Positions 12,015-58,109 of a DNA stretch of 64,000 bases are shown here, piece by piece. The stretch's first letter is position 1; each line of letters begins with the position of its first letter. This DNA comes from Candidatus Chazhemtobacterium aquaticus. Lineage in GTDB: Bacteria; Patescibacteriota; Microgenomatia; UBA1400; Chazhemtobacteraceae. Where the stretch lies: the NCBI RefSeq assembly GCF_009936135.1, contig NZ_CP047901.1, forward strand, positions 631,927-695,926, written 5' to 3'. The notes under the pieces were generated by a model that saw only the letters and a program-made list of their open reading frames with translations, made no database searches and had not been told where the DNA came from. A program made the position numbers and the translations under genes.

Positions 12015-13820
12015 ATGTCAAACAATAACTCAAAATTCAATCAGCTCTCACCAGAAGATCAACATCTATATCAAATCCGTCACACCGCCGAACATGTCTT
12101 AACTCAAGCCATGATTAATCTCTATGGACCAGACAAGATCATTATGGCCATGGGTCCAGCTACAGAAGACGGTTTCTACTTCGATTTTGACTCACCTCAA
12201 GACTTTAAACTATCTGAGTCAGATTTCCCCGTCATTGAAAAGGAAATGCAACGCCTTATCGATCTTGACCTTAAGCTTGAATCAATTACCGTCTCGGCTG
12301 ATCAAGCCAGAGACCTGTTTAAAAAAAACCCCTACAAGCAAGACTGGATTACTCAAGCCGAAAGCAACCAGCTACCCATTACCCTCTACTACACTGGTAA
12401 GGACAGCGAAAATGAGTTTGTTGATCTTTGTTCCGGCCCCCATGCCGATAGTACTGGACAGATTGGAGCTTTCAAACTACTTTCGCTAGCTGGCGCCTAC
12501 TGGCATGGTGATTCCAATAACAAAATGCTAACCCGTGTTTATGGCACCGCCTTTTCATCTCAAGAAGAACTAGAACAGTTCATCGAAAAACGTCAGGAAG
12601 CTGAAAAACGAGACCATCGAAAGTTAGGGCTTAAATTTGATCTCTTCACCTTCTCCGATCTTATCGGCCCAGGTTTTCCCCTGTACACCCCCAAGGGCTG
12701 CCTACTTCGTCAACTCATTAATGGATATGTTGAACAACTCCAAACTCAACAAGACTACCAACAAGTCTGGACTCCCCAGGTAGCCAAAGCCGAGCTGTTC
12801 GAAACCTCTGGACACTACGACAAATACAAAGACGACATGTTTACCATTCACTCTCACTACAGCGACGATGAGCTGTTCTTAAAACCAATGAACTGTCCTC
12901 AACACACCCAAATCTTTGCTAGCAAACCCAGAAGCTATCGTGACCTACCCATTCGTTACACCGACTTCGCCATGCTCTATCGTGACGAAAAACCAGGAGA
13001 GCTCTCAGGGCTAGCCCGAGTTAGAGCTTTCTCCCAAGACGACTGCCATGTTTTTTGCAGCGAAGAACAGGTCGATGACGAAGTAGATGTCATGCTTTCC
13101 ATGACTAAAGAGGTCATGCGCACCTTCGGACTTAAATATCGCTACCGTCTTTCCACCAGAGACCCAAACACCCCAGAAAAATACTTAGGTGATCCCAAAA
13201 TCTGGGACAAAGTAGAAAAATGGGCCGTCAAAATCATGGAAAGAAACCACATCGAATACTACGATGGAGTAGGGGAGGCCGCCTTTTATGCTCCTAAAAT
13301 GGACTTAATGGCTACCGATGCCTTAGGTCGAGAGTGGCAACTTTCCACCGTTCAGATTGACTATGTTCAACCACAGCGTTTTGGTCTTAAATACACCGCC
13401 GCTGACGGTAGTGATCAAACCCCAATCATGGTTCATAGAGCCATCATTGGCTCCTTCGAGCGCTTCCTTATGATTCTAATCGAGCACTTCTCAGGCGCTT
13501 TCCCAGTCTGGCTCTCACCAGTTCAGGTAGCTGTCCTACCCGTTTCTGACAAGTCCAATGACTATGCCCAAGAAGTCTTCTATGAGCTTAAGAACAACGG
13601 TATAAGGGTCGAGTTTGACCAATCCGACCAATCATTGGGCAAAAAAATCAGAAATGCTGAGGATCAAAAATACCCCTACATGGTTATAGTCGGTGAAAAA
13701 GAAGCCAAAGATAGCACTATCTCTGTTCGCCAAAGAGGTGAACAAGACCTGGGTAGTATGGATCTGACTCATTTTTTGTCCCTCTTGAAGGAAAAAATTG
13801 AATCTAAAGCTTTAAATTGA
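12015..13820 (+). CDS. thrS: Threonine--tRNA ligase
   Basis: RHTAEH and DLCSGPH editing motifs, LKPMNCP, GEAAFYAPK, HRAIIGSFERF. Confidence 0.97.
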   Translation: MSNNNSKFNQLSPEDQHLYQIRHTAEHVLTQAMINLYGPDKIIMAMGPATEDGFYFDFDSPQDFKLSESDFPVIEKEMQRLIDLDLKLESITVSADQARDLFKKNPYKQDWITQAESNQLPITLYYTGKDSENEFVDLCSGPHADSTGQIGAFKLLSLAGAYWHGDSNNKMLTRVYGTAFSSQEELEQFIEKRQEAEKRDHRKLGLKFDLFTFSDLIGPGFPLYTPKGCLLRQLINGYVEQLQTQQDYQQVWTPQVAKAELFETSGHYDKYKDDMFTIHSHYSDDELFLKPMNCPQHTQIFASKPRSYRDLPIRYTDFAMLYRDEKPGELSGLARVRAFSQDDCHVFCSEEQVDDEVDVMLSMTKEVMRTFGLKYRYRLSTRDPNTPEKYLGDPKIWDKVEKWAVKIMERNHIEYYDGVGEAAFYAPKMDLMATDALGREWQLSTVQIDYVQPQRFGLKYTAADGSDQTPIMVHRAIIGSFERFLMILIEHFSGAFPVWLSPVQVAVLPVSDKSNDYAQEVFYELKNNGIRVEFDQSDQSLGKKIRNAEDQKYPYMVIVGEKEAKDSTISVRQRGEQDLGSMDLTHFLSLLKEKIESKALN

Positions 13821-13859
13821 TAAAATTAAAGCCTCAAGTTACCAATCACCGTCAAAACC

Positions 13860-14399
13860 ATTAATAAACATTACTCCATAAACCAGTACATTAGAGCCGA
13901 GCAATTGCGCGTTATCAAAGATGGGGGAGAACAACTAGGTGTCATGTCCAGAGACAAGGCCCTAGCTCTCGCCAGGGAACAAGGACTGGATTTAATCCTA
14001 GTTGCCGAAAAAGCCAATCCACCAGTTGCCAAAATCATCGACTTTAGCAAGTTCAAGTACCAGCAATCAAAAAAAACCAAGTCTGGTACCACCAAAACCA
14101 AAGCCACCAATGTCAAAGAAGTCCGTTTCACCCCTTTCATGGCCGAAAACGACTTCAACACCCGTCTTGAACGAGCCAGGGAATTTCTAGCCGATGGTCA
14201 CAAAGTCAAACTCGTGGTAAAATTCACCGGGCGTCAGATCACCCGTAAAGAGTTTGGTATCTCGCAGATGGACAAGGCTGTCCAAAGCCTATCCGATATC
14301 GCCAAACTAGAACAAGATCCCAAATGGCTCGGCAAACTATACGTCGGTCAAATTAAACCAACTAAACAAATTAAGAAAGATGAACAAGACCAAAACTAA
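13860..14399 (+). CDS. infC: Translation initiation factor IF-3, probable ATT start
   Basis: The conserved N-terminal INQYIRAEQLRVI lies upstream of the called TTG; in-frame ATT at 13860 with an in-frame stop at 13827. Confidence 0.9.
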   Translation: MNKHYSINQYIRAEQLRVIKDGGEQLGVMSRDKALALAREQGLDLILVAEKANPPVAKIIDFSKFKYQQSKKTKSGTTKTKATNVKEVRFTPFMAENDFNTRLERAREFLADGHKVKLVVKFTGRQITRKEFGISQMDKAVQSLSDIAKLEQDPKWLGKLYVGQIKPTKQIKKDEQDQN

Positions 14400-14580
14400 G
14401 ACCAGACAAATTGTCGCCAAACGGTTCAAAATTACTGCTACCGGCAAAGTTCTACGACGCACTCCCAACATGCGTCACTTACGTCGTCGTAAGAGTGCCA
14501 AACAAATTCGTCGCTACCGCAACTATGTCGAGGTAAAAGGCGTCTTTGCTAAAAAAATTAAAAGAATGTTAGGAATCTAA
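14380..14580 (+). CDS. rpmI: 50S ribosomal protein L35
   Basis: KTKTRQIVAKRFKITATGKV; infC-rpmI-rplT order. Confidence 0.93.
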   Translation: MNKTKTKTRQIVAKRFKITATGKVLRRTPNMRHLRRRKSAKQIRRYRNYVEVKGVFAKKIKRMLGI

Positions 14581-14581
14581 T

Positions 14582-14932: not shown

Positions 14933-15008
14933 CCCCTTTCTCTTGATTCCCCTTATTGAATAACCTATAATACTCAACACTCGTTCATTTGAGTAAGGAG
15001 ACTTACCT

Positions 15009-15227: not shown

Positions 15228-15258
15228 GCATCACCACACCGCCGAGTCTCTCAACCCA

Positions 15259-15292
15259 GGGACGTCCTTAAACAAGACGTCCCGTCTTTTTT
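15259..15292 (+). terminator. Intrinsic terminator
   Basis: GGGACGTC...GACGTCCC stem followed by T-tract. Confidence 0.6.
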
Positions 15293-15301
15293 CTACTTTA
15301 T

Positions 15302-15919: not shown

Positions 15920-15992
15920 AACTTGATCCTATAAACAAAACAAACACTCGTCAAGCTCAAGTTTACTGCCATATCAAGCTTAAACAAAAAAA

Positions 15993-17865: not shown

Positions 17866-18870
17866 ATGGACGATCTCGAAATCATCAAAAAACAAGCTAC
17901 TCAGCAAATCCAGTCTGCCAAGGATCTTGAAGCCTTAGACAAACTTCAAACTCAATATCTTGGCCGCAAAGGTTTAGTCAATCAATACTTAAGCTCGCTT
18001 CCTAAAGAAGCCCTAAAAAGCCAGGGTCGTCTCATCAACCAAACCAAACAATACATTGACCAGCTTATTGCCAAACGCCAAAAATCTCTTCAGCAGGTCC
18101 AACAAGAGATCGATGTCACCATACCAGGCATTCTTCCACCCATCGGCCACCTTCACTTAATTACCCAAACCATTAAAGAAATCGAGGATATCTTCACCAA
18201 ACTAGGCTTTGTCAGGCGTCGTTACCCAGAAGTAGAGACTGACTGGTACTACGCCGAAGGCCTAAACATCCCCAAAGACCACCCCGCCCGAGATGACCAA
18301 GAAACCTTCTATATCAATCCAGAAGTTGTTCTAACCGCCCATACCAGCAATGGCCAGTTACGAGAGATGGAGTTATTAAAAAAACCTCCCATCAAAATGA
18401 TTAACATTAGTAAGACCTATAGACGTCAGGCCAGTAATACCCATAGTCCCATGTTCCACCAGTTCGAGGGTTTAGTCGTAGACAAAGATATAAACATCAC
18501 TCACCTTATCGGTGTCAGCAACTTCTTTGTTCAGTCATACTTTGGCTCTGACCGTCAAGTCAGACTTCGTCCTCACCACTTTCAGTTCACCGAGCCCAGC
18601 TTCGAAGTCGACATCAACTGCCACCTTTGCAAGGGTAGGGGAGAGTTAAATGGAAAAAGCTGCCCCGTCTGTAAAGCTGGTTGGCTAGAGCTTGGCGGCG
18701 CCGGCATGGTCCACCCTCAGGTCTTAAAAAACGGTGGTATCAATCCCGATCGATTTACTGGCTTCGCTTTCGGTTGGGGGATAGAACGTCTCATCATGAT
18801 GAAACATAACGTTACCAACAACCTACGAGATCTCTATACCAGCGATCTTCGCTTTCTCAATCAGTCATAA
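17866..18870 (+). CDS. pheS: Phenylalanine--tRNA ligase alpha subunit
   Basis: HPARDDQETF, HSPMFHQFEG, FQFTEPS, GFAFGWGIER; CxxC...CxxC insert. Confidence 0.96.
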   Translation: MDDLEIIKKQATQQIQSAKDLEALDKLQTQYLGRKGLVNQYLSSLPKEALKSQGRLINQTKQYIDQLIAKRQKSLQQVQQEIDVTIPGILPPIGHLHLITQTIKEIEDIFTKLGFVRRRYPEVETDWYYAEGLNIPKDHPARDDQETFYINPEVVLTAHTSNGQLREMELLKKPPIKMINISKTYRRQASNTHSPMFHQFEGLVVDKDINITHLIGVSNFFVQSYFGSDRQVRLRPHHFQFTEPSFEVDINCHLCKGRGELNGKSCPVCKAGWLELGGAGMVHPQVLKNGGINPDRFTGFAFGWGIERLIMMKHNVTNNLRDLYTSDLRFLNQS

Positions 18871-23647: not shown

Positions 23648-25657
23648 ATGCGGCTTAATCACTCTGTTGCCAATCTGCCCGGAGTCGGTCCAGCTTATCA
23701 AAAACGACTCCAAAAACTTAATATCAACACTATTTCTGACCTCATCAACCACTTCCCTTCCCGTTATCTTGATTACTCACACACCACCCCCATCAACAAA
23801 CTCGAACCAGACCAAGAAGTCTGCCTTAAAGCCACCCTTGTCTCACTAACTTCTGTTAGACTTCCTAATCGAAAAACACTCCAAAAAGCCACTGTTACTG
23901 ACTCAACTGGATCGCTTCAACTAACCTGGTTTAACCAACCATATCTTACTAACTCTCTTATTCCCAAACAGCAATACTATTTCACCGGCCAAGTTGATCA
24001 ATTCAGAAATCAACTAATCCTCAACTCACCAGACTTCGAACCAATTAAAAAGAAACAACTCCATACCAACCGCATCATTCCTCTCTACCCACTTACCGCC
24101 GGTATCTCCCATAAATGGCTCCGTCACAAAATCAGTCTAGTCCTCTCATCGCTCACCATCAAAGAGATTTTTCCCTCTTCTCTTAAATCAAGGCTACCCA
24201 TCGACCTTAACTCCGCCTACCATCAAGTCCACTTTCCAGACACTCAAAAGCAACTTGAGTCGGCTCAAAAACGCCTAAGCCTTAATGATCTAATCGGTAT
24301 CTATCTTAAATCCGCTCTCACTCAACTAGACTGGCAGCAACGATCTGCCACTCCCATAACCACCACCCCATCACTTCATAACCAGCTACTCAAAAAACTA
24401 GATTTCGATCTAACTCCAGACCAACAACAAGCCATCAACGATGTATTCACAGACCTTAAACAAACCATCCCCATGAACCGGCTTCTCCAAGGCGATGTTG
24501 GCTCAGGCAAAACCATTGTCGCCGTCTCGGCTGCTCTACAAGTAGTGAAACAAGGCTTTCAAACCCTTGTTCTTGCCCCCACTCAAGTCCTAGCAGAACA
24601 ACACTACCAATCCTTCTCCCAACTGCTTAAACCCTTTTCTATCAAGCCACTACTTGTCACTGGACAATCTAAAAAGAAGTTACCCACCGCCCCCCTGGTC
24701 ATCGGCACACACGCCTTATTACACCGACCAGAGCTTATCCAAAATCAAAAACTTGGTCTAGTTGTCATCGACGAACAACATCGCTTTGGTGTTCTTCAAC
24801 GCTCATCCTTCTTTAACTCTGTCTCGACACCCCACCTTCTTACCATGAGCGCTACTCCAATTCCACGAACTATCGCTCTATCTCTATATGGCCACCTTAC
24901 AATCAGCAACATCAACACTCTTCCCAAGAATCGCAAACCCATCAAAACCAAGGTTGTCTCAGAGATCAAACGGCCACAAGCATATCAATGGATCAAGCAG
25001 CAAATTACTACCAGGAAAACCCAAGCCTTCTTCATTTGTCCCCTAATTGAGGACTCATCCAGCGAAAGTCTTAAAACGGTTAAGGCAGCCACCAGTGAGT
25101 ATCAACGCCTCCAACAGGTCTTTCCCGATCTCAAAATTGCCCTTCTACATGGAAAAATGAAGCCCGAACAGAAAAACACGATCCTTAAAGAGTTTAAATC
25201 TAAAAAGTACGACATTCTAGTCAGCACCCCTGTCATCGAGGTTGGCATAGACATACCCAACGCCAATATTATGGTGATCGAAGGGGCTCAACGCTTCGGA
25301 TTATCTCAACTCCACCAACTCAGAGGTCGAGTCGGTAGGGGAGAGCACCAATCTTTTTGCCTTCTCTTTAGCTCTGAAATATCAACCACCTCGCTTCACC
25401 GTCTAAAACTTATGGAAAAGTACCAACGTGGTCTAACTCTAGCCAAACTTGACCTCCAATTAAGGGGGGCAGGGGAGATCTTTGGTACCGCCCAAAGCGG
25501 ACACCTAGACACTCAATTCCCTCAGTTTTGGAACGCAGATCTTAACAAGCAAGCTAAGCAAATTGCCCAGCAACTAGTTTTATTACCCAAACCACAACCT
25601 CAACAACTTCTTGTCTCTCTAAACCCGAATCTTGCAAAAACAACCTCACCCAACTAA
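23648..25657 (+). CDS. recG: ATP-dependent DNA helicase RecG
   Basis: Wedge domain, MNRLLQGDVGSGKT, DEQHRFG, SATPIPRT, QLRGRVGRG. Confidence 0.96.
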   Translation: MRLNHSVANLPGVGPAYQKRLQKLNINTISDLINHFPSRYLDYSHTTPINKLEPDQEVCLKATLVSLTSVRLPNRKTLQKATVTDSTGSLQLTWFNQPYLTNSLIPKQQYYFTGQVDQFRNQLILNSPDFEPIKKKQLHTNRIIPLYPLTAGISHKWLRHKISLVLSSLTIKEIFPSSLKSRLPIDLNSAYHQVHFPDTQKQLESAQKRLSLNDLIGIYLKSALTQLDWQQRSATPITTTPSLHNQLLKKLDFDLTPDQQQAINDVFTDLKQTIPMNRLLQGDVGSGKTIVAVSAALQVVKQGFQTLVLAPTQVLAEQHYQSFSQLLKPFSIKPLLVTGQSKKKLPTAPLVIGTHALLHRPELIQNQKLGLVVIDEQHRFGVLQRSSFFNSVSTPHLLTMSATPIPRTIALSLYGHLTISNINTLPKNRKPIKTKVVSEIKRPQAYQWIKQQITTRKTQAFFICPLIEDSSSESLKTVKAATSEYQRLQQVFPDLKIALLHGKMKPEQKNTILKEFKSKKYDILVSTPVIEVGIDIPNANIMVIEGAQRFGLSQLHQLRGRVGRGEHQSFCLLFSSEISTTSLHRLKLMEKYQRGLTLAKLDLQLRGAGEIFGTAQSGHLDTQFPQFWNADLNKQAKQIAQQLVLLPKPQPQQLLVSLNPNLAKTTSPN

Positions 25658-30208: not shown

Positions 30209-31057
30209 TTAATCAGTCTGAGTTAACTGACCACCCGAATACAAGGCTGCATCAAACACAACTGGTAACACCGGTAACGTTCTTATCGCCTCAACTTTTC
30301 GAACCACACCATCCGCCGTTGACCCCGTAGAGACAATCCTATATGCCTGATCAGGTAACAGCGACCCAACAGGCAAGGGAGACACTCCAATTTTTCCTCG
30401 GTTATACAACATTCTCACTCTAACAATCACATCCTCAGCCACAATTGGTACATTAGCTCTAGCTCCAAAACTAACACCCATAAAACTTCCTGGATTCACC
30501 GTTGCTGTATCAAAATTGTTCGAAGCTCTCCTGGTTGCATCTGGATCGAAAGCATAATGCACTGTTCGATAATCACTATCAGAAAACTGCTGATATTTAA
30601 TTACCTCCACTGCTCCAGTAGGGGACTCATTCGACTCACCCCGGTCTGCCCAATATATATCCAAACTTGTAGGTGGACTTGCCGAACCTGTCACATTAAC
30701 CTCAACCACCTCTCCAGTTTCGATTGCTACATTTGTCACCTGACCATCCGCTCCCTCACTTTGGGCATCAGTTTCAAAACTTGCCTCATTCACCGTCCCC
30801 TCAAAAGATCCACCGATACTAATATTCCTCAATGCTTCCTCAATACCCGCCTCTGCAGCCTTCAAGGCCTGAGATGAACTCTGTTCAACTCCTGCCAATC
30901 TCAAATCAGAAACTGATCGACTTACTACTGACAACACAATCACCCCCATCACCACCAATACCAATACCACTATCAACGCCACCTGACCTTGCTGATCTCG
31001 CACACCATTCTTCATAAACCCATTCTGACCAATTCTTCTTTTAGAGTCAAACATCAA
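30209..31057 (-). CDS. PilX-like minor pilin
   Basis: GQVALIVVL hydrophobic N-terminus; ALKAAEAGIEEAL. Confidence 0.8.
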   Translation of the reverse strand: MMFDSKRRIGQNGFMKNGVRDQQGQVALIVVLVLVVMGVIVLSVVSRSVSDLRLAGVEQSSSQALKAAEAGIEEALRNISIGGSFEGTVNEASFETDAQSEGADGQVTNVAIETGEVVEVNVTGSASPPTSLDIYWADRGESNESPTGAVEVIKYQQFSDSDYRTVHYAFDPDATRRASNNFDTATVNPGSFMGVSFGARANVPIVAEDVIVRVRMLYNRGKIGVSPLPVGSLLPDQAYRIVSTGSTADGVVRKVEAIRTLPVLPVVFDAALYSGGQLTQTD

Positions 31058-32454: not shown

Positions 32455-32834
32455 GGATTATTCAAGCAATATGGACTGGTCTCACCACTTCCCTCCATAG
32501 TTGTAGCACACAAGGTGTACTGGGTAGGGGACACGTATGTATAACTATATCCAAAACCCGTCTGACCATCCTTTGGATCAGTTGGCACCGGGTCAAGATA
32601 AGTTTGTCCATCACAAACAATTGCGGTACCCAAAGAAGCTGGATACGCCCCACTTTCAGCTCGACATATCTCCAAAGCTGCCCTTATCTGTTCCAAGTCA
32701 CCTTTACGTTTACTGTCTCTGGCATTTGCATTTGTTGATGAGAAACTAGCCATCGCAATGCCTGAGATAACTGCAATAATCGTAATAACCACCAACAACT
32801 CAACAAAAGTAAAACCTGCTTCCTTTATTCTCAT
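32451..32834 (-). CDS. Type IV pilin (GspG-like)
   Basis: GFTFVELLVV; ARDSKRKGDL...ALE...YP...PTDP. Confidence 0.85.
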   Translation of the reverse strand: MRIKEAGFTFVELLVVITIIAVISGIAMASFSSTNANARDSKRKGDLEQIRAALEICRAESGAYPASLGTAIVCDGQTYLDPVPTDPKDGQTGFGYSYTYVSPTQYTLCATTMEGSGETSPYCLNNP

Positions 32835-34929: not shown

Positions 34930-35736
34930 TTATCGCAACAAGCCAAAGTACCACTCCCAGATTAACTCATGCCACAACAAGGCCATCACCGTCCCTAATA
35001 CCAAGAAGGGGCCAAAAGGTATAGTTTGACCAAATCTCTTTCTCCCCAAAGCCAGCAACACCACAGCCACTACAGCTCCGCTCATAAACGACAACATTGT
35101 CGCCACAATAGTCCCCCTCAATCCCAATAACAATCCCAAGCTTGGTGCCAGCTTCACATCACCTAAACCAAACCCCTTTCTCTTCGTCAATAAATATAAC
35201 CCATAGAAAAATAACGCCAAGCCAATTCCTGCGACCACCGCCATCCAAAAATCCTGCGGTCTCATAATACCCATCACTACCAATGCCACCCTATAACCTA
35301 AAACTAAGACCAATAACAACATATTCACCGCATTAGGAATCACTCCATACCATAGATCAAAGACTAAAACTAACAGAAGTAATACTCCTACCATTAGCCA
35401 AAAATATGGCTGGACGAGTTCTAGTGGAGTGTTAACGAGTAGGAAAAATCCTTTACCCATCACATACCACCAAACAAACAACAACGCAGTCAATCCCTCA
35501 ACCACGGGATACTGCCAAGATATTCTTTTCTTACAATGCGCACATTTACCCCGAAGAAATAAAAAAGAGAGTAGGGGAATGTTGTGCTTCCACGAAATCT
35601 GCTTTTTACAGTGAGGGCAAACTGATCTACCCTTCAAAGGCGACTCACCATAGATAGTTCGATATACCACCACATTAAGAAAACTTCCAATCACCAAACC
35701 AAATATAAAAAGCCAAAACACCCAGTACCAAAACAT
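34930..35736 (-). CDS. pilD: Prepilin peptidase
   Basis: GSFLNVV.YR, RSVCPHC...GKCAHC, GLGDVKL, PFGPFL. Confidence 0.95.
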   Translation of the reverse strand: MFWYWVFWLFIFGLVIGSFLNVVVYRTIYGESPLKGRSVCPHCKKQISWKHNIPLLSFLFLRGKCAHCKKRISWQYPVVEGLTALLFVWWYVMGKGFFLLVNTPLELVQPYFWLMVGVLLLLVLVFDLWYGVIPNAVNMLLLVLVLGYRVALVVMGIMRPQDFWMAVVAGIGLALFFYGLYLLTKRKGFGLGDVKLAPSLGLLLGLRGTIVATMLSFMSGAVVAVVLLALGRKRFGQTIPFGPFLVLGTVMALLWHELIWEWYFGLLR

Positions 35737-41395: not shown

Positions 41396-43441
<2,046 letters not shown>

Positions 43442-43459
43442 AAATTAGACTTTAATTAA

Positions 43460-44404: not shown

Positions 44405-44420
44405 CTAAATTACCATCAAT

Positions 44421-47063: not shown

Positions 47064-47124
47064 TAACCTGGTTTACTCCTGATTTTTAGTACAACTGATA
47101 AGCGGAACTAAAACCCTATAATAT

Positions 47125-48087
47125 ATGATTACCATCAAAACTCTTAAAGCCGGAACCTATATTACCGACCATCCATTCGCCATCACTAATGTCACTCAAA
47201 AAACCACCAAAAACAACACCCCATATCTTCAAGTCACCCTAAGCGACCCAACTGGTCAACTAGAAGCCAAAGTCTGGAACGATGCCTTTGATGATGTTAC
47301 TCTTGAAGTTGGCAAAATTGCCCTTGTCACCGGTCGAGTAGGGGAGTACCAGGGCAAAATCGACCTCAATATCCAAAAAGCCAGCATCGACTCTTCATTA
47401 AACTTCACCGACCATCTCTCCACCATTCCCACCATGATCTTCGACATCGAAACAGTCGGCAAGCCTTTTGATGAACTAGAGGCCTGGGACCAAGACTATT
47501 TTCTAAACCGCATCGAGGGCCAAACTGATGAGGAGGAAGCCAAAACCAAAACCGGCCTGTATTCCCTCTATGGGTTTGTTCAGGCTATTGGCCTGATCAA
47601 TCAAGAGGGTAGGGGAGAGGTCCTTGCCTTAACTGACCAAAAACTCAAAAACTCCAATCCCAGCTTTACCTACTCAACCTTTGCCAATGAAAAAGACTTA
47701 CTTACCAAATTCTGGGGCCTTACCCAAGAATATCAGCGCTTCGTCACCTACAACGGTAGGGGATTCGACTGGCCTTTTTTAATCATTCGCTCAGGTATTA
47801 ACCGCGTCAAAGTCCCCATGGAAATCGACCACTACAATAAGCATAAATTCATTGATTTAGCTGACCATCTTCGCCAAGGAGGTAGACAATTTAAACTAGA
47901 AGCCTTTTGCCGAGCCTTTGGCATCACTAATCCTAAGGAAAAAGGTGTCTCGGGTTTACTGGTCAGCCAACTCTATTACGAAAAAAACCATCAAGCCATC
48001 GCTGACTATGTTTCCCGCGACGTTATCTCCACCAAAGAACTCTACGATATCTGGCATCAATATCTCTCCGGTCATCTAAATTTTTAA
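47125..48087 (+). CDS. OB-fold fused to a PolB-like DEDD 3'-5' exonuclease
   Basis: N-terminal YLQVTLSDPTGQLEAKVW OB domain; FDIET, YNGRGFDWP, YVSRDV exonuclease motifs. Confidence 0.8.
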   Translation: MITIKTLKAGTYITDHPFAITNVTQKTTKNNTPYLQVTLSDPTGQLEAKVWNDAFDDVTLEVGKIALVTGRVGEYQGKIDLNIQKASIDSSLNFTDHLSTIPTMIFDIETVGKPFDELEAWDQDYFLNRIEGQTDEEEAKTKTGLYSLYGFVQAIGLINQEGRGEVLALTDQKLKNSNPSFTYSTFANEKDLLTKFWGLTQEYQRFVTYNGRGFDWPFLIIRSGINRVKVPMEIDHYNKHKFIDLADHLRQGGRQFKLEAFCRAFGITNPKEKGVSGLLVSQLYYEKNHQAIADYVSRDVISTKELYDIWHQYLSGHLNF

Positions 48088-48106
48088 CAAATATCTTCTC
48101 TACTCA

Positions 48107-49414: not shown

Positions 49415-49439
49415 GATTCTTTCATTCAAACCATTTTCC

Positions 49440-50393
49440 CTACTTCAAAAAGCGTTCGTGCACCTTGCGCAGTTGTGGATTAGTCACATGGGTATATACC
49501 TGAGTCGTGCTTACATTCTTGTGTCCCAACATCTCCTGAACCGAACGCAAATCTGCTCCGTTTTGCAGCAAGGTTGTCGCAAAAGAGTGCCTAACCACAT
49601 GAGGGCTTACTTTAATCGGTAACTTTGCCGACCTTCGATACTTCTCAACAATTCTCTGTATAGTCCTAACCGATAACCTCATCTGTTCACCAGCAGTCGC
49701 TGGATCCGCCTTAGTTCCCGAATACCGAATCCACACCGGCCGCCAATGATCGTCTCTAGCCACTAAAAATCTCTCTAACCACTTAGCTGCTCGTTCACTT
49801 AAAAAAACCACTCTTACTCTTCTTCCTTTACCCACCACCCCAAACTCTCGACTCTTAATATCAATATCCTCTCTATTTAATTTAGCCAGTTCACTAACCC
49901 GCAAACCAGTTGAAAACAACACCTCCAGTATCGCCTTATCTCGCAATCCTTCAGGCTCTGATGTCAGCGGCTGGTCAAGCAGTCTCTCAATCTGTTCACG
50001 GCTCAAAAACCTAATTCTTCGACCCTCAGCCTTAGGCAGCTCTACCTTCTCAGGAGACAAGCTCTTAATCCCTTTCTTACTTAAGTACTTTAAAAAAGCT
50101 CGTAGAGCAATTACGTGATAACTCTGCGTTGTTCTTGACAAGGTCTGGCCCTTCTCATCCTCATAACGACTCAACCACAATCGATAGCTTCTAACCATCT
50201 CAGCCGTTAAGCGATTAACATATTCCTGCTCGTATTTTTTTTCAAACCACTTCCTAAATCGAGTCAAGTAAAACCTATAGTTTCTTAACGTATATTTTGA
50301 GTAATTCCGTTCAACCTCAAGGTGGGCGATAAACCGATTAATTAATTTTTTTAATTCAAAATCTTCTTTTGTTTTCTTTGTCTGTTTCATCAC
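49440..50393 (-). CDS. XerC/XerD-family tyrosine recombinase
   Basis: SAM-like N-domain; catalytic R (TGLRVSEL), K (GKG), HxxR (HVVRHSF), H and Y (LGH...TTQVY). Confidence 0.92.
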   Translation of the reverse strand: MMKQTKKTKEDFELKKLINRFIAHLEVERNYSKYTLRNYRFYLTRFRKWFEKKYEQEYVNRLTAEMVRSYRLWLSRYEDEKGQTLSRTTQSYHVIALRAFLKYLSKKGIKSLSPEKVELPKAEGRRIRFLSREQIERLLDQPLTSEPEGLRDKAILEVLFSTGLRVSELAKLNREDIDIKSREFGVVGKGRRVRVVFLSERAAKWLERFLVARDDHWRPVWIRYSGTKADPATAGEQMRLSVRTIQRIVEKYRRSAKLPIKVSPHVVRHSFATTLLQNGADLRSVQEMLGHKNVSTTQVYTHVTNPQLRKVHERFLK

Positions 50394-50504
50394 TAGGGTA
50401 GGGGAGACCCTTGATAATTTCTAGCACACCTGTCGCCACAAATCAACAATGTGCGACACTATGCTTGGTTACAAACAGCAGCTTGAGGCATATAATCTTT
50501 ATTT

Positions 50505-51371
50505 ATGAAAACAAAACTACTAGGCTTCTACAAACTCACCCGTGTCAATGATTTTTTTGCCCAATCATTCGCCACTGTCAGCTTAATGACTACTTTTATT
50601 GAGGGGACCATCAACCCTTTTACCTTTACCCACCTTTTTTTAACAAATCTCTTTATCACTGCTTTTTCCTTCGCTATCAATGATCTTGAGGATGCACCCG
50701 ATGACGCTCTAGACCCCAAAAAACGCTTAAGAAACCCCATCAGCGCAAAACTAATCACCCGCTCTCAAGGTCTTGTTTTTACCACTCTTCTAGCTATTAT
50801 CTCAATTCTCCTAGTCTGGCCATTTGGCAAACTAGCCAGAATAATTGCACTGACCTGCCTCCTATTGGGCTTTCTATACTCATATAAATCAGTCAGGCTT
50901 AAATCCATGCCTATCATTGACCTAGTCTCCCACGGTCTCTTTTTAGGTACAGCCCAGATCCTCATTACCGCCATTGGCTTTGGCCTTGAACTAAATCCCA
51001 AGATCTACCTGGTAGCTCTAATCGCCTTTAGTTTCTCCGTTCTTTCCGATTTCTACAGCGAAATCAGAGACTACAAGGTCGATCGCCTTTCAAACATCAA
51101 CAATACTGCCTCCATCGTTAATGTCGACGGTATAAAAAACAAAACTCATTACTTCCATGTCATCCCCGCCATCCTTATTACCCTCCTCTTACTATCCAAT
51201 TTCTCAGGACAATTCCAAATCATCCTGCTAGGATTAGCCTTAATCTTCGCCTTTTTCTACCTTATTTCCTCTGAACAATTCAGGCACAAGATTGCCCACC
51301 AGTACTTCAAGGTCGTACTAGTAGCTACAGGCACCATTCTGATTGCAGTCCACAGCTTCCAATATTTCTAA
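50505..51371 (+). CDS. UbiA family prenyltransferase
   Basis: NDLEDAPDD...RNPI, YS...RLK, EIRDYKVD; multiple TM helices. Confidence 0.85.
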   Translation: MKTKLLGFYKLTRVNDFFAQSFATVSLMTTFIEGTINPFTFTHLFLTNLFITAFSFAINDLEDAPDDALDPKKRLRNPISAKLITRSQGLVFTTLLAIISILLVWPFGKLARIIALTCLLLGFLYSYKSVRLKSMPIIDLVSHGLFLGTAQILITAIGFGLELNPKIYLVALIAFSFSVLSDFYSEIRDYKVDRLSNINNTASIVNVDGIKNKTHYFHVIPAILITLLLLSNFSGQFQIILLGLALIFAFFYLISSEQFRHKIAHQYFKVVLVATGTILIAVHSFQYF

Positions 51372-51970
51372 TTTTTTATTTTCTAAGTCGTCAAAATTCT
51401 CCCTATCTTCAATAGGGGAGAGGGGAGTCTTCTGCCCATATTCCCTTTAAATATCCAATAAAGACTCAAAGGGTTATATATCCCATAATATATAAACGAT
51501 ATTTTTCGCCTATGTGGTTAAAGAAACAAGAAAATTAAAAACTAACTAATCATTTATCCACCATAAATTACATAAACAATCCTTACTTACCTAGTTTGCC
51601 TATCTATATCATTAATATCTAAGCGTTCACATTTCCAAATCATATCTATAGTCGAATAGGCTAGTCATGAAATTAAGAAGGATATGATCAAGACAACAGC
51701 CAACACTCCTTATCATCCGCACACAAACGACCTTAAAGCCACCACTACACTCGACAACCACACTCTGGCAATAAACAACACAACTCGTACAGTCCTAGCC
51801 TCAAAAAGCATGGCCTACATGCCTACGACCGCTTCTAATGCCTTCAGAAGGCTTTCCAGACACATGCAAGCTATCTCATTACCTCGAGAATACATTGATA
51901 TATAGGCATTTTAGGCAAAATGGCTTAATCAGATAATATCCAATTACTGATGTAAGAAAACTCAAAAATC

Positions 51971-52086
51971 CTTTCGGGTTTTTATTCAAAAAGGCGAACC
52001 AGGCACAAAGCCATAACTAGTGGCACAAAAACCGGGGAGTATAGTCATGCTTGTTAAGACCGAAAATCTTTCGGGTTTTTATTCAA
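51971..52086. repeat. 19-bp exact direct repeat CTTTCGGGTTTTTATTCAA
   Basis: Copies at 51971-51989 and 52068-52086. Confidence 0.9.
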
Positions 52087-52136
52087 TCCATCGTTGGGGA
52101 CTACTTGGCACTTCTCCACCACCTTTGCACCACACC

Positions 52137-52164
52137 ATGTCGTAAAAGTAACATTGTACGACAC
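52137..52164. other. Putative dif (Xer recombination) site
   Basis: ATGTCGTAAAA-GTAACA-TTGTACGACAC: 11-6-11 with 9/11 inverted arms; 1.7 kb from xer; GTAGGGGA polarity flips around it. Confidence 0.7.
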
Positions 52165-52574
52165 AATCTCCTAGTCCGAAACGACTCTCGAACAAGTAGG
52201 GAAGTGAAGATGTATGTCCATCAAAAATATCCACGACACAAACCAACAACTAAATATTTATCTAACAAAACAAGGCTAATCTCCCCCCAGATGACCTAAG
52301 GCTCTTACCTTCTATATCCCGTGGAAATCGTGAAAAAATACCTATAGTTTTCCACATATCGATCAAACTGTATCAATTAAGGCTAAATTATCTACCCTTA
52401 GACTCCTCTCTCCCCCTCAAGATCTAGTGCCATAAATTTTTTGTATTGCTAGCCTCAAATCATGGCTAAATCAACAAGACCGGACAAGCCTGCTGTACTG
52501 TAATGTTATAGGATAATTACAATTCCCGCATAGACTATAGGTCTTCCCTACTCCATACCCGCGTCCTAAAAAAA

Positions 52575-53396
52575 TTAACGCCAACTTGTAATATAAAAAC
52601 TTGCCAAAAGCACCATCACCGCCACAGCCACATACTCATTCATTTGATTTTTAAACAACCTCCCCGAAAGGTACTGCTGTGACAAACCTAACACCACATA
52701 CATCACTGTCACCAGCATTAAGGCCGCCGTCAATCCCTCAACCGGCCAGAAAGCAAGAGCCAAAGCCGCCTCAGCCACGATTAATGCGCCGACCAATGAA
52801 TAAAGCCAAACCCGTCTACTTAACCCTTCCTTTAGTTGCATCGACCAGTTGCCCTGCAAGAAAAGAGGCAGAGACATACCACCCGCCAACAACGACAAAG
52901 CCCAGAATGGCAACTTAAATGAAACCAACGCATGAAACAAAAACAATCCCACTAACAAGGTCAACAAAAAACCTACCGCATGAGCTGCTCTCAACAGCTG
53001 AATCGTCCGTATTGCCGCCACACTAAAAATATTCTCAGTTAAATAAATAGCATAGTAACCCAGGCCAAATCCGACCCAAAACAACGCCCGAATCAAACTC
53101 GCCACCAACCTCGCTACATCAGCCTCAAGTCGTTGACCCAAAATCCGTGGTACCGACTCAGGCAAAAACAAAGAAAACAAACCCGCCCCAAGGGTGTAAA
53201 ACACCGGCAAAATAATAATCGTAATCCACTCAACCCCTTTTAAATCTTCAAAAAGCACCCACACAGACAACAAATAAGACAAAACCACTGCCACAATAAT
53301 TACCTGCAACCTATGTTCTGGCACTACAAACTGCATTGCCCACAATAACAACGCCATCAAACCAGAAGCTAAAACAAACTTAAACCGTTTAGTCAT
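52575..53396 (-). CDS. Multi-pass membrane protein of unknown function
   Basis: About 9 TM helices; NIFSVAAIRTIQLLRAA motif. Confidence 0.75.
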   Translation of the reverse strand: MTKRFKFVLASGLMALLLWAMQFVVPEHRLQVIIVAVVLSYLLSVWVLFEDLKGVEWITIIILPVFYTLGAGLFSLFLPESVPRILGQRLEADVARLVASLIRALFWVGFGLGYYAIYLTENIFSVAAIRTIQLLRAAHAVGFLLTLLVGLFLFHALVSFKLPFWALSLLAGGMSLPLFLQGNWSMQLKEGLSRRVWLYSLVGALIVAEAALALAFWPVEGLTAALMLVTVMYVVLGLSQQYLSGRLFKNQMNEYVAVAVMVLLASFYITSWR

Positions 53397-53410
53397 TACT
53401 ACCCTCTAGC

Positions 53411-53935
53411 TTAAGCCAAATTACTCCAGACCTCAACCACATCATCATGTTCATCCAAAGTCTCAATCAGTCTCTCAGCTGCATCCTTATCCTTACCCTC
53501 AAGCGTTATCTTAGGTGTTGGCTCAATTGTTTTTAAATAAGCAACCGACCCAGGCGCACCCAAACTTCCCCCATTCTTATCAAATATATTTTTAATCTCT
53601 GCTGATGTCCTGTTCCGATTATCAGTTAATACCTTCACAATCACTCCTACACCACCCACTCCATAACCCTCATACACAATCTCCTCCATCTTCCCCTCAC
53701 TCCCCTTTCCCAATCCCCGATCAATCGCTCTTCTAATGTTGTCATTGGGCATATTAGCTTCCCTAGCTTTATCAATTGCCAATCGCAGCGTCGGATTAAT
53801 CGCAGGATCACCACTGTTTCCTTCCTTTACCGCAATCGTGATCATTCGAGCAACTTTTGTGAACGTTTTACCTCTCTTGGCATCAACAACTGCCTTCTTG
53901 TGTTTAATAGTTGACCATTTACTGTGTCCTGACAT
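53411..53935 (-). CDS. yebC: YebC/PmpR family protein, short form
   Basis: [34 protein letters not shown]. Confidence 0.93.
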
Positions 53936-54008
53936 GCCCAGTATTATAGCACCTCAACAATTAACCCTTGACGTCATCTCCACAATCATTTACATTTTCC
54001 TTCAGCTT

Positions 54009-54716
54009 ATGAATCCTAACCTGCCAGACCTTATCAACAAATCTATCAAGGCAGCCCTTTCTCAATCCTGGACCGAAGCCATCGATCTCAATCTTCACAT
54101 TCTCCAGCACAAACCCAACGACATCCCCACCCTTAATCGTTTAGCCAAAGCCTACGAAAAATCATATGAGCCAGACAAGGCTAAAAAAACCTACCAAAAA
54201 GTCCTAAAACTTGACCGCTTTAACAACATTGCCATCTCCAACCTCTCTCGTATTAAAAAGTCTCCACCTCGTACTCCATCATCAGACATCACCAACTCAC
54301 ATCCTCAAAAAACATTCAGCTTCATTGAGGAACCAGGTAAAACGAAAACTGCTTCATTAACCAAACTAGCCCCAAAGCAAGTCATCAACTCTCTTGATAC
54401 TTCACAGGTAGTCATTTTAAAGCCTTACAGGCGCCGTATCAGTGTTTTCACTACGCAAGGCACCTGCATCGGCTCACTTCCTGACGATCTATCCCGCTAT
54501 TTACTCCGCCTTATCAAACTCGGCAACAAATACGAAGCTGCCATCAGAAATATCTCCCGCTCTCAAATAGAAATCTTTATCAGAGAAATCCATAAATCAA
54601 AACGTCTCAAAGGTCTTCCCTCATTTCCTTTAAAAGACACCAAAAACTATTTTGCTCTTCTCCCCACTGACCCCATCGCCGAAGTTCCTCTCGAACTACC
54701 CGAGTCAGAGACTTAA
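54009..54716 (+). CDS. TPR-containing protein with possible HIRAN-like C-terminal region
   Basis: TLNRLAKAY...AKKTYQKVLKLD..NNIA; FIEEPGKTK; IGSLPDD; ATG 54009 avoids the yebC overlap. Confidence 0.72.
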   Translation: MNPNLPDLINKSIKAALSQSWTEAIDLNLHILQHKPNDIPTLNRLAKAYEKSYEPDKAKKTYQKVLKLDRFNNIAISNLSRIKKSPPRTPSSDITNSHPQKTFSFIEEPGKTKTASLTKLAPKQVINSLDTSQVVILKPYRRRISVFTTQGTCIGSLPDDLSRYLLRLIKLGNKYEAAIRNISRSQIEIFIREIHKSKRLKGLPSFPLKDTKNYFALLPTDPIAEVPLELPESET

Positions 54717-54743
54717 AAAAACCTCCCCGTTTCATCACTATCC

Positions 54744-55640
54744 CTATCTGTACCTTTCCGCCCACTCCTTTCCTATTACCACCCTCACATCACCACCCAC
54801 CCTATTCCCAGTTCTCTCTCCACAACCCATCTGTCTTTCAAGCCAATCAATACTCACAGACTCACTCTCACCCCCGCTCTCGTACCAACACAAACCATCC
54901 TCAACCTCAGCCGTATCTACCAACACCACCACTCCTCCAGCCGACTTAATCATCTGCTCCACCAATCTAGCCATACCCGGCTCACCGCTTGCGTTTATCA
55001 CCTCAAAACTTAAACTTTCAGCCAGTATCGCCGGACTTGCCCATAACCCTTCCATCCATGCCCATAATCCTCCTTTATCTACCCTTACCTCAGTCTGGCC
55101 ATCTGGAGTTACCTTCATACTTGTCAATCTCGACGGGATCCGCAAACTCTCCCTTTGATCATCTCTTAACTCGTTCCATGCCTTAACTGTACTAAAACTA
55201 TCCCACTTGCTCTCCGCCATTCCAGACCAAACTCTACTCCATTCAAAAGCTGCATCACCTCGCCAAACCGCATCAATCTTAACCCCCATCCAACTCTCTA
55301 AACTTCGCCTTACCATCTCCTCCGGTCTTCCCTCACTCTCACCAAATCGCCATAAAGATTTTACCTTTAACTCACCCTGGGTACCCACCAAAGGAACCAT
55401 CACCTCGCCAGGAATGACCACCTCAACCGCTCTCTTAGCCCTTGAATTAACCCCTACCACCCTTATCCACTCATCCTCAACTACTGCAGTAATATAAAAA
55501 CGATTCTCACCCCACTTTGACCTACCCTTCTCAAACACCAACCACCCAAACACTAGTATCGACAATATCAATACGGTAGCCATCAACCACCACCCACTCC
55601 TTCCTGAATTACTCTTTCCCCTACCATAATCACGCCTCAT
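54744..55640 (-). CDS. Membrane-anchored LytR C-terminal domain protein
   Basis: TM; EVINASGEPGMA...DVRVVIG. Confidence 0.7.
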   Translation of the reverse strand: MRRDYGRGKSNSGRSGWWLMATVLILSILVFGWLVFEKGRSKWGENRFYITAVVEDEWIRVVGVNSRAKRAVEVVIPGEVMVPLVGTQGELKVKSLWRFGESEGRPEEMVRRSLESWMGVKIDAVWRGDAAFEWSRVWSGMAESKWDSFSTVKAWNELRDDQRESLRIPSRLTSMKVTPDGQTEVRVDKGGLWAWMEGLWASPAILAESLSFEVINASGEPGMARLVEQMIKSAGGVVVLVDTAEVEDGLCWYESGGESESVSIDWLERQMGCGERTGNRVGGDVRVVIGKEWAERYR

Positions 55641-55672
55641 CCTTTCACTCTACCAGAACCTACACCCCTCTA

Positions 55673-56392
55673 TCAAACCATATCAAAATCTACCAACACT
55701 TTCTCAAGATCAGCGGGTAATTCAGCCTTAATCACCATTCTCTCTCCACTTCGCGGATGGTTAAACTCAATTATTTCCGCATGCAAAAAATGTCGAGACA
55801 ATATCTCGCGATCAACCTTTGCTTTCTTACCCAAATACATCAAATCGGCAAATAAAGGATGTTTCAAGTGCTTCATATGAACTCGTATCTGATGTGTTCG
55901 ACCAGTTTTCGGCCACAATCTCACTAAGCTATATCTACCACCCTCTTTAGTTAGCAGTTTTATCACCTGCCACCTCGTCTCCGCCTGCTTACCCTCATAA
56001 TTCACCTTCCTTTTTTCTCGACAAAGCGCATCTCTGGCAATTGGTAGTCGTATCACCCCCTCATTTGGTTCCAGCCAACCGTGTACTAAAGCCACGTAAC
56101 TTTTTTTTGTTTCTCTAGCCTTAAATTGGCGCATCAATTCCTTTAAACTCTCCTCATTTTTAGCTATCAACAAACAACCACTTGTCTCCTTATCCAATCG
56201 ATGTGCTAATCCACCCCTAGCCCGCATCAACTCACCCGTAGCCTCACCAATCCCTAGTTTATCTACTGCCCAATCCTGCACTGTTGTTCCAGCCGTCTCA
56301 CTCCTATTTACCACGATTCCCGCCGGCTTGTTTATCACCAGCAAATCATTATCCTCATACAAAACCGGAATCTCAAGCTTCTTTATTTTCAT
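55673..56392 (-). CDS. RluA/RluD family pseudouridine synthase
   Basis: INKPAG, HRLDKETSG, TGRTHQIRVH, LHA. Confidence 0.93.
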   Translation of the reverse strand: MKIKKLEIPVLYEDNDLLVINKPAGIVVNRSETAGTTVQDWAVDKLGIGEATGELMRARGGLAHRLDKETSGCLLIAKNEESLKELMRQFKARETKKSYVALVHGWLEPNEGVIRLPIARDALCREKRKVNYEGKQAETRWQVIKLLTKEGGRYSLVRLWPKTGRTHQIRVHMKHLKHPLFADLMYLGKKAKVDREILSRHFLHAEIIEFNHPRSGERMVIKAELPADLEKVLVDFDMV

Positions 56393-56801
56393 TAACCTGC
56401 TTATTTCTAAATCGCCAATAATCCATCAGCATTATCCCAAGCCCAGCGCTAATATACAAATCAGCCAGGTTAATCCACAAACCCACAAACTCCAAGTTTA
56501 TCCAATCAATCACCCGTCCATAAGCAAAACGATCAATCAGGTTAGCCACTCCACCCAAAATTATCACTCTCTCCCCTACCCGACTCTCATCTTTAAGTCT
56601 CAGCCACCACCAACATAAACAGACAAATACCAATATCCACCACCAATCAGTCCCAAACTGCCACCCAAAAGACACCCCCGTATTTTCAACATACTCTCCC
56701 CTACTCCAAAACCAACGCTTGCTTAAAAAATCAACCAGCAACAATACCAAACCAAAACTATTTAAGCTTAGCAGACTCCATTTTTTTCTCACACTCAACA
56801 C
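56373..56801 (-). CDS. lspA: Signal peptidase II
   Basis: NTGVSFG, GGVANLIDR...VIDWI, NLAD. Confidence 0.88.
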   Translation of the reverse strand: MLSVRKKWSLLSLNSFGLVLLLVDFLSKRWFWSRGEYVENTGVSFGWQFGTDWWWILVFVCLCWWWLRLKDESRVGERVIILGGVANLIDRFAYGRVIDWINLEFVGLWINLADLYISAGLGIMLMDYWRFRNKQVNENKEA

Positions 56802-57162
56802 AATACTCAGCTGTTGGATTAATAGCTAACCTATCAGTATCAATAAGCTTGCCACATCTAGCACAAGTACCATAACTACCCACCTTAATCCTTGTTAAAG
56901 CCTTCCTGATATTAATCAAGCCCTTATCCACCTCCAGCTTAATTGCCTGGACTCGCTCATGCCCCATCTGTTCAGCTACCTCAGTATCAACTGCTGCATT
57001 GTTATCAACCCTATCTGTATCAGAAAACGGATCCTCCTTTGTCAACGATTTCTTCTGCCTCTTTAATCTCTTTTCCTCATTAAGAAGATAGTCCTTAATT
57101 GGTTTTAACACCCACGAAGGAAACCTAACCACTTGTCTAACCTTGCTTTTAATTTCAGCCAT
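56758..57162 (-). CDS. DksA/TraR C4 zinc finger protein
   Basis: YGTCARCGKLI...RL...P.AEYCVEC with upstream coiled coil. Confidence 0.88.
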   Translation of the reverse strand: MAEIKSKVRQVVRFPSWVLKPIKDYLLNEEKRLKRQKKSLTKEDPFSDTDRVDNNAAVDTEVAEQMGHERVQAIKLEVDKGLINIRKALTRIKVGSYGTCARCGKLIDTDRLAINPTAEYCVECEKKMESAKLK

Positions 57163-57184
57163 TATCCTAGTTTACACCACCCTC

Positions 57185-58015
57185 CTACTTTTTAAAAGTT
57201 TCTTGCCTACCCTTTCTTCGCTTTAACCTTGATATATCCTCCCAAAATCTTCTTCCTGATCTTTGATATATTCCTACCACTCCAATGCCTATTAATAATA
57301 ACCCCATGACCATATCTAAGGCCACTCCAAACACCTGGGTCTGCTCACCCCTAAACAAACTCGCCATAGAAAAACTCAAACCCAAAAACACCAACCAACC
57401 AAACCATAGAAATCCAGTTCTGGCCGCAACCCTTCCCGCTCGATACCATGACAAAGTCCTGTACTCTCCCTCCATCCTCCACCACCACAAGAAAAAGACG
57501 CTGCTAATAACTAACATGATCAGTTGAACCGGTACCAATTTCATTTCATAACCCGGAAAATTAACACCCCACCAACCCTGTGTCTCAGCCCCTAAATAAC
57601 TTCCGTTCAAAAATGCCGCTAAAAAACCCCACGGCAAAGCTGCCGCCACACCCAAACTTACATAATCAAGCCACAAAAAAACATCCTCTTCACTGTCTCT
57701 CAATCTCCACCACAGATACCCTACCCCCGCAATCAACCCACCCCACCAACACAACCCCACATAATTACTCAGCCACAACCACTTAAGTAAGCTAAAACCA
57801 AACTCACCAAAATGAGTCAGGATGTACCCAACTCTAGCCCCCACCAAACCCCAAAACAAACTCATAAATGCACTGTCCAGAAAAAACTTATCCTCAACAT
57901 GAGACTCCTTCGCCTTTTTCCACGCCACGAACAGACCCATCAGTACACCAATCACTAGCATCAATCCCATACTAGATATCTCAACTCTTCCTACTTTAAG
58001 TATCACTGGTAGCAT
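57185..58015 (-). CDS. lgt: Prolipoprotein diacylglyceryl transferase-like protein (divergent)
   Basis: MLPV, GLVGARVGY, WWGG, FLNGSYLG, PVQL; adjacent to lspA. Confidence 0.7.
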   Translation of the reverse strand: MLPVILKVGRVEISSMGLMLVIGVLMGLFVAWKKAKESHVEDKFFLDSAFMSLFWGLVGARVGYILTHFGEFGFSLLKWLWLSNYVGLCWWGGLIAGVGYLWWRLRDSEEDVFLWLDYVSLGVAAALPWGFLAAFLNGSYLGAETQGWWGVNFPGYEMKLVPVQLIMLVISSVFFLWWWRMEGEYRTLSWYRAGRVAARTGFLWFGWLVFLGLSFSMASLFRGEQTQVFGVALDMVMGLLLIGIGVVGIYQRSGRRFWEDISRLKRRKGRQETFKK

Positions 58016-58109
58016 GTTCCTATCATAAAACACCCAGCCAATAAAACCAAATCACTCCCCTACTCTATTTCATCACTATTTTGCTATACTCGAAAAAGAC
58101 CCTCAAGTT

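Follow-up and report, generated by a model that had tools for sequence, protein, structure and literature searches.

The stretch of DNA examined here, called the window, comprises 64,000 nucleotides (C1:631927-695926) of the single 801,504-bp contig of the Microgenomatia bacterium Candidatus Chazhemtobacterium aquaticus (NZ_CP047901.1; contig completeness rating 99.1%). It carries a short G-rich word, GTAGGGGA, whose copies converge from both sides on a 28-bp palindrome of the dif type that lies beside a gene for a Xer-type tyrosine recombinase. A first-pass annotation, made from the letters alone, had noted the convergence at about 52 kb and had proposed a lineage-specific FtsK-orienting polar sequence (KOPS). 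By searching the whole chromosome and those of its relatives, we find that the word is directed from the dnaA origin towards the palindrome and is enriched against the mutational bias of its strand; what is unusual, and lies beyond the earlier annotation, is a GC skew that keeps one sign all the way round. We consider it highly probable that RGTAGGGGA, the extended form of the word, is a KOPS-like motif. The genome under study is denoted G000 and its relatives G018, G005, G002 and so on; the relatives are not independent of one another, so counts over the order and the class are descriptions and not p-values.

The octamer and the dif-type locus

An exact search of the window finds 14 copies of GTAGGGGA, 10 on the plus strand and 4 on the minus strand, where 2.36 would be expected by chance; none of 100 dinucleotide shuffles reached 14. 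The plus-strand copies point to dif and stand at 13269..13276, 18635..18642, 25335..25342, 30618..30625, 32524..32531, 35571..35578, 47338..47345, 47609..47616, 47756..47763 and 50398..50405, the last being intergenic and directly upstream of xer, and the minus-strand copies at 55617..55624, 56572..56579, 56697..56704 and 58056..58063, the latter three intergenic. All nine plus and four minus copies listed in the first-pass annotation are among them, the copy at 30618 being an addition, and the near-copies given at 25469 (GCAGGGGA) and 51412 (ATAGGGGA) are present. That annotation had seen no plus copies after 52.2 kb and no minus copies before 52 kb; plus copies indeed run no further than 50405 and minus copies start at 55617. 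Orientation is unmixed (10/0 and 0/4), and the density rises near the switch as had been described, with four copies within 5 kb on the left and four within 6 kb on the right. Nor is the switch an assembly join, a doubt raised at the time: contigs of four runs, drawn from four studies, run collinearly through 30/30 bins of window positions 43001-62000 (no single contig spans the whole stretch), and the same switch is found in relatives. The plus strand is G-poor in 32/32 2-kb bins of the window, in agreement with the earlier remark, and there is no sign change at 52 kb.

At the convergence point lies an imperfect inverted repeat of 28 bp with 11-6-11 geometry (52137..52164), which the first-pass annotation had not spotted. 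It was recognized through inverted-repeat scans at the xer loci of 20 relatives, which gave a common 11-6-11 palindrome; in G000 it is single-copy, non-coding and 1.7 kb from the Xer gene. Within the order the dif pattern is found in 30/31 genomes, against 4/31 for a backwards control, with one strong site in each of the 30 and extra two-mismatch matches in 4. Across the class, two mismatches give the pattern in 50/71 genomes but the control also in 24/71, and at most one mismatch gives 46/71 by row count (45/70 without the unpublished G077); across the phylum, one mismatch gives 36/61 genomes and 3 for the control. An AT-rich palindrome near 51470 was considered as dif and rejected, as it is not conserved.

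The Xer gene (49440..50393, minus strand) is transcribed away from dif and encodes a protein of 317 aa that aligns over its full length with E. coli XerD (1a0p, E 1e-45), with the catalytic R, H-x-x-R, H and Y motifs intact. An orthologue occurs in 31/31 genomes of the order. The protein scores below every curated NCBIfam cut-off for the Xer families (XerC 248/335, XerD 240/330, XerA 210/220, XerS 112/267). G008, the sole genome of the 31 lacking the dif pattern, has the most divergent Xer (37% identity) and could possess a replaced recombinase/site pair. G001 is the exception among the sites compared: its dif (L122 / L037, G001:C5:44654) is inverted with respect to xer, which is the case at none of the other 20. 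Just upstream of xer in the window is a degenerate dif-like repeat (50431..50459), and a dif half-site stands at a similar place in 15/20 genomes versus 4/20 for an in-gene control; the repeat is a candidate operator, perhaps an autoregulatory one. A second conserved Xer-like integrase (L004, G000:C1:88653-92129), in which N replaces the first catalytic H, lies about 208 kb from the window Xer (near C1 90 kb) and adjoins a tRNA-Met and a VirD4-like gene at C1 91 kb; a second integrase match is present in 30/31 genomes of the order.

The dif-type site is held by a platform of 1.2 kb (51372..52574) that is non-coding, is AT-rich and has no Rfam match, so a structured RNA is unsupported there. 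A DnaA-box-like 9-mer lies near dif at 52348..52356 (plus strand), and most genomes of the order have 1-2 DnaA boxes within 700 bp of dif (L025-L054), above shuffle expectation. Three genes from dif, window positions 47125-48087 encode a protein with an OB fold, whose matches to YhaM and to DNA polymerase I-like proteins are weak.

Polarity of the word across the chromosome and in relatives

Genome-wide, GTAGGGGA occurs 31 times on the plus strand and 14 times on the minus strand and is the top-ranked polar 8-mer of G000 among 8-mers seen at least 15 times. Forty-two of the 45 copies point from the dnaA origin to the palindrome, as do 23/23 of those within 100 kb of dif, and the density rises towards dif, reaching 1 copy per 4.6-8.7 kb within 30-100 kb of it; the motif-rich zone spans about 490-700 kb. 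The base 5' of the octamer is a purine in 42/45 copies, which gives the word RGTAGGGGA, whereas the 3' G taken for a conserved extension in the first pass is present in only 18/45. AGGGGA, the core of the word, is shared across the order and the class. On the plus strand it begins at dnaA (8 seen, 1.8 expected), and polarity diverges at dnaA/oriC. parS was entertained as the point of divergence and rejected: G000 has no canonical parS cluster and no repeated 14-bp palindrome, and divergence maps to dnaA instead of the antipode of dif, which is near 285 kb.

The same arrangement is found in relatives, with copies oriented from oriC to dif in 28/34 cases in G018, 15/16 in G005 and 29/32 on contig 1 of G002 (3 matches on contig 2 were dropped). 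Within about 10 kb of dif, counts of GTAGGGGA in the two orientations are 26/0 on the left and 0/11 on the right in 24 genomes of the order, and those of AGGGGA are 125/16 and 8/125; 20 further genomes of the class, which bring the pooled dif flanks to 44 genomes, give 104/12 and 10/83 for AGGGGA. The KOPS reading of the first-pass annotation is supported, the word having the features by which KOPS are predicted (see below), whereas its restriction to one lineage does not, the core being shared class-wide.

A rival account makes the polarity a side effect of how genes are oriented, of codon use or of a word like a ribosome-binding site; in its favour, genes in relatives converge on dif from both sides and A-rich coding words near dif are also polar. 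We regard this explanation as largely refuted and scarcely credible. The copies, 41/45 of which are inside predicted genes (our own calls, 716 genes), sit in genes of both orientations, as had been noticed in the window, and in all three frames, and their pattern survives synonymous shuffling; single-base variants are far rarer than the word itself (at most 5 against 26), and control words have no such pattern.

For each arm of the chromosome, the expectation was taken from 100 synonymous-codon shuffles that keep the protein and the per-gene codon use, a codon-preserving check that the first-pass annotation had called for. On the long arm (290 kb to dif) the G-poor strand carries 30 copies against 1.2 expected, and the wrong orientation is avoided altogether (0 copies against 8.3 expected); near dif on the short arm there are 5 copies against 1.5. 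Over-representation of the word is confined to the long arm and the dif region, and control words show nothing comparable in these shuffles. At neutral sites of plus-strand genes, C outnumbers G by 14:1, and on the long arm the word is kept against this bias. The polarity of KOPS is usually confounded with the G skew of the leading strand; here the evidence of selection on the word is unusually clean.

FtsK and other candidate readers of the word

The ftsK gene whose location had been proposed as a check is present in G000: it is intact (700 aa) and encodes a gamma domain that matches solved FtsK-gamma with E about 1e-9. An FtsK gamma domain is found in 31/31 class genomes. Of 27 class sequences, obtained at 30 loci, 26 have GYA, GYS or GFS in gamma; the corresponding motif of E. 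coli and P. aeruginosa is GYN. The GYN position of gamma reads bases. Besides full ftsK, some relatives have stand-alone FtsK-gamma-like frames of 92-116 aa (G038:C4:242396, G037:C2:10571, G052:C1:434598 and 436898), which are possible independent readers of the polar word.

A G-rich polar octamer oriented from oriC would also suit a Chi-like signal for an AddAB/AdnAB-type helicase-nuclease, polarised by fork direction and not by dif. We consider such a signal improbable. The switch in polarity lies within 0.2-4 kb of dif in four genomes and does not coincide with that in gene orientation near 600 kb; if the forks meet near 600 kb, the 14 copies at 612-684 kb would be on the lagging strand. 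Chi sites are, as generally held, spread fairly evenly, whereas the density gradient of the word is steep, from 1 per 5 kb near dif to 3 in the 212 kb of the far short arm. The word thus shows neither polarity by fork direction, with the meeting zone placed as above, nor even density.

Several points tell against a KOPS-like role. The arm limits used for the 8-mer polarity ranking were chosen after seeing the data. One-mismatch variants of the word are not polar (minus strand, 23 left and 9 right of the switch; plus strand, 6 and 1), as the G-richness of the minus strand would lead one to expect. The far short arm (1-212 kb) is not enriched (3 copies against 9.1 expected), and at 212-290 kb there are 3 copies directed away from dif. 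G-runs are under-used generally on the minus strand (GGGGAGGG 4 against 13.1), which makes the deficit in the wrong orientation partly generic. A candidate reader of a Chi-like signal exists, namely a 1055-aa frame with a PD-(D/E)XK nuclease domain (PF12705) that is a UvrD-type helicase-nuclease candidate and probably AddA/AdnB-like. Finally, we infer the binding of the word by FtsK-gamma, the pumping of DNA and Xer recombination at the site by analogy with characterized systems.

One-sign GC skew and the mode of replication

The GC skew of G000 is negative in 41/41 bins round the 801-kb chromosome, and in G018, G005 and G002 it is likewise of one sign, with 20/20 stretches of 20 kb sampled per genome (37-55% of the contig) in agreement. 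We call relatives with such a one-sign, strand-wide skew offset genomes and those in which the skew switches sign at dnaA ordinary genomes. In every offset genome the G-rich strand is the dnaA-coding strand, that is, the dnaA strand is C-poor.

The main rival to our account accepts the KOPS-like word and disputes two forks only: replication would run mostly one way from oriC, in the dnaA-to-dnaN direction and with the G-rich strand leading (PMC7143001), and the position of dif, the orientation of genes and the skew step would be relics or the work of minority two-way rounds. The one-sign skew itself speaks for one-way replication, and the G-rich strand is always the one that a surviving dnaN-ward fork would make. 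In a tree of 8 dnaA-region proteins (FastTree, midpoint root), offset genomes appear in at least 3 separate places, and each time the dnaA strand is the G-rich one; repeated loss of one and the same fork would give this simply. Other observations weigh on the same side, against two forks. Arm-level skew steps (0.52, 0.74, 0.30, 0.11) roughly scale with the offset, and by a hand estimate they are equally compatible with a mixed mode in which about 10-20% of rounds are two-way; the best free skew step is at 150-720 kb and not at 211-612 kb; strongly offset genomes have slightly fewer oriC DnaA boxes (14 in 6 genomes versus 46 in 14, p=0.10); and the genes flanking dnaA are orthologous, so codon preferences specific to these genes could contribute to the step seen there.

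Against one-way replication stands first the position of dif, which in G000 is 327 kb from the dnaA-dnaN gap at C1 about 209 kb, compared with 4-27 kb from the origin in verified one-way Pseudoalteromonas chromids (PMC7858055). It lies 59% round the circle from oriC and 9% off the antipode, asymmetric by the standard of PMC6199493, and in 7/7 single-contig genomes (G000, G018, G005, G032, G058, G087, G092) its place is 58-65% of the way round, measured from oriC, and each time on the upstream side of dnaA. The orientation of dif relative to dnaA is identical in 9/9 genomes, which suggests that chromosome handedness is fixed across the class. The motif-rich zone is centred on the antipode and not beside oriC.

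Genes, too, are oriented as two forks would have them. From oriC to 610 kb there are 256 plus and 98 minus genes, from 610 kb to dif 23 and 38, and on the short arm 103 and 198; the G-rich strand of G000 holds only 334/716 genes, compared with a leading:lagging ratio of 1.34 in the chromids (PMC7858055). The 16S and rplB genes are co-directional with two forks in 8/8 cases in four genomes (G001 was left out, its contigs being unplaced), and 6 of these cases are on the C-rich strand. Inside one offset clade, 16S is found on different arms and strands (G000 and G002 versus G018) and is co-directional with two forks each time.

The local skew step at dnaA, measured at fourfold sites, is undiminished in offset genomes: 0.63±0.09 logit in 7 of them versus 0.49±0.05 in 14 ordinary ones, with rho -0.05. 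Gene strand was controlled, the cut was made at the dnaA start, the groups were drawn from the same loci, and 21/24 genomes were used, 3 being skipped for short flanks. The strand offset is weakest at 500-600 kb, near the antipode and not next to oriC. Contig depths on either side of dnaA and at dif are flat within noise in four runs (X3 about 32/33/30, X6 about 10/10/9.5) and speak for neither mode, each contig giving one depth and the populations possibly not growing. Weighing the other evidence, we lean slightly towards replication by two forks, with a further strand-wide bias superimposed, and hold predominantly one-way replication to be unlikely, though a serious contender.

The DnaA boxes near dif, together with the length, AT-richness and non-coding nature of the platform, might instead indicate that the platform is itself an origin, the joint start and end of one-way replication, with the word marking it. 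This is very improbable. Boxes near dif are equally frequent whether the genomes are ordinary (18 strict boxes in 14 genomes) or offset (9 in 7); ordinary relatives switch skew sign at dnaA; and there is no fourfold-site skew step at dif (pooled -0.46/-0.10 on the left, -0.41/-0.17 on the right), the skew of ordinary single-contig class genomes relative to dif being known within 10 kb of it only. The dnaA-dnaN gap of offset genomes moreover keeps the anatomy of an oriC, by eye a set of DnaA boxes together with CTA repeats and an AT-rich tract, and can be likened to the box-plus-trio unwinding module of PMC6669920.

Several causes of the offset were considered and rejected. Loss of uracil repair does not account for it, as G000 and G018 carry family-1 Ung by sequence and most offset genomes carry it by score class; nor does loss of Fpg, which is present in 27/31 genomes. 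The orientation of dif is no anchor of the strand bias either, for the bias is kept in G001, where dif is flipped relative to xer. Offset genomes mostly have family-1 Ung (L210, L211, L212) and ordinary ones mostly family-4 UDG or none (L208, L209), with G002, G005 and G017 as exceptions, a pattern that may be shared ancestry only. Outside the order, the class genomes G034 (L202) and G084 (L204) have skew of the same sign on both sides of dif (0.44/0.23 and 0.35/0.07), and the strand offset may recur in other orders.

Proposed mechanism and significance

Taken together, we think it likely that the best overall explanation is a KOPS-like word read by FtsK, with Xer acting at dif; replication of the chromosome by two forks is the weaker part of this account. 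By analogy with the systems described in PMC3384302 and PMC5357621, FtsK anchored at the septum would load on RGTAGGGGA/AGGGGAG and pump DNA towards dif, where the neighbouring Xer, alone or with its paralogue at C1 90 kb, would resolve chromosome dimers. Two forks starting at the dnaA-dnaN gap would converge close to the antipode, short of dif by about 70 kb; this would account for the longer run of guide words that the long arm needs.

The one-sign GC skew would be a separate, fork-independent bias on top of this, always making the dnaA-coding strand C-poor. We suggest tentatively, as a conjecture that may well prove wrong, that several lineages gained a second process, independent of the forks, that exposes the dnaA-coding strand to cytosine loss chromosome-wide. 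One candidate cause is repeated passage of the entire chromosome in single-stranded form, for instance by way of a relaxase-less type IV secretion system, and systems mostly without relaxase are typical of the phylum (PMC12102498). Another candidate is an epibiont life with asymmetric division, in which the inheritance of one old strand is fixed; retention of the old strand is documented in E. coli (PMC8379921).

If it exists, a fork-independent bias would be a source of strand asymmetry that our literature search did not find described in bacteria, and the long arm would be a natural experiment separating the selected polarity of KOPS from mutational skew. Two forks would also challenge one-way replication, which is the only printed explanation that we found for the one-sign skew of these chromosomes (PMC7143001; neither KOPS nor FtsK is mentioned in its available text). 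In a search that left subscription papers mostly outside and supplements unread, we found no paper joining KOPS and FtsK to the candidate phyla radiation, and none on a Microgenomates dif site and Xer, although dif-prediction tables in supplements could hold the site. What is new is the whole-chromosome test of a polar word in a genome with one-sign skew, and it offers a guide word, a dif site and a recombinase, all testable, for a large uncultured phylum.

Comparison with known systems

The KOPS of E. coli (GGGNAGGG), the SpoIIIE recognition sequences (SRS) of B. subtilis (GAGAAGGG) and GAAGAAG of L. lactis are read by the gamma domains of FtsK or SpoIIIE (PMC3384302). KOPS are predicted from genome skew and over-representation, with at least 1 copy per 40 kb and at least 90% skew in the dif region (PMC3384302), and the word of G000 shows polarity and over-representation, the required density, 23/23 skew within 100 kb and a cognate FtsK gamma. 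Like KOPS and SRS, it is a polar purine-rich word running from oriC to dif, with complete skew and high density near dif, a winged-helix gamma FtsK and the G-N-A-G-G-G core in common. It differs from them in its sequence, RGTAGGGGA with the core AGGGGA[G]: neither GGGNAGGG with N=A, C or G nor GAGAAGGG is enriched in G000, so the E. coli-type word with a free fourth base does not apply, and only its N=T form, which overlaps the new word, is enriched. Whereas KOPS normally mirror the GC skew (PMC6199493), the word runs against it on the long arm.

The recombination module has the 28-bp 11-6-11 geometry of XerCD/dif and, like the single-recombinase modules XerS/difSL and XerH/difH, a recombinase gene beside its site (PMC5357621). 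The arms of the window site are nearly symmetric, unlike the sequence of E. coli dif. The 317-aa Xer is closer to XerC/XerD than to XerS/XerH while falling below every curated cut-off, and with a paralogue about 208 kb away, the putative system may use one or two recombinases.

For Microgenomates chromosomes with one-sign skew, either adjacent ori and ter or unidirectional replication has been proposed (PMC7143001, section 3.4). The chromosome of G000 resembles these and the Pseudoalteromonas chromids, whose leading strand has 1.34 times the genes (PMC7858055), in having skew of one sign round the whole replicon. It departs from the one-way pattern in several ways: dif lies far from the origin, the polar word has two arms, genes and rRNA are oriented as with two forks, and dnaA retains a skew step; of the features of a unidirectional replicon, it has the one-sign skew but neither dif beside the origin nor more genes on the G-rich strand. 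A parallel to the displaced dif is P. aeruginosa PAO1-UW, in which segregation ends at dif and replication opposite oriC, and the GC skew switches at dif (PMC6199493); such asymmetric chromosomes are rare (113/2027; PMC6199493). As in PAO1-UW, dif of G000 is displaced from the antipode of oriC and polar words follow dif; unlike PAO1-UW, dif lies 58-65% round on the same side in 7/7 genomes, and the fourfold-site skew takes no step there.

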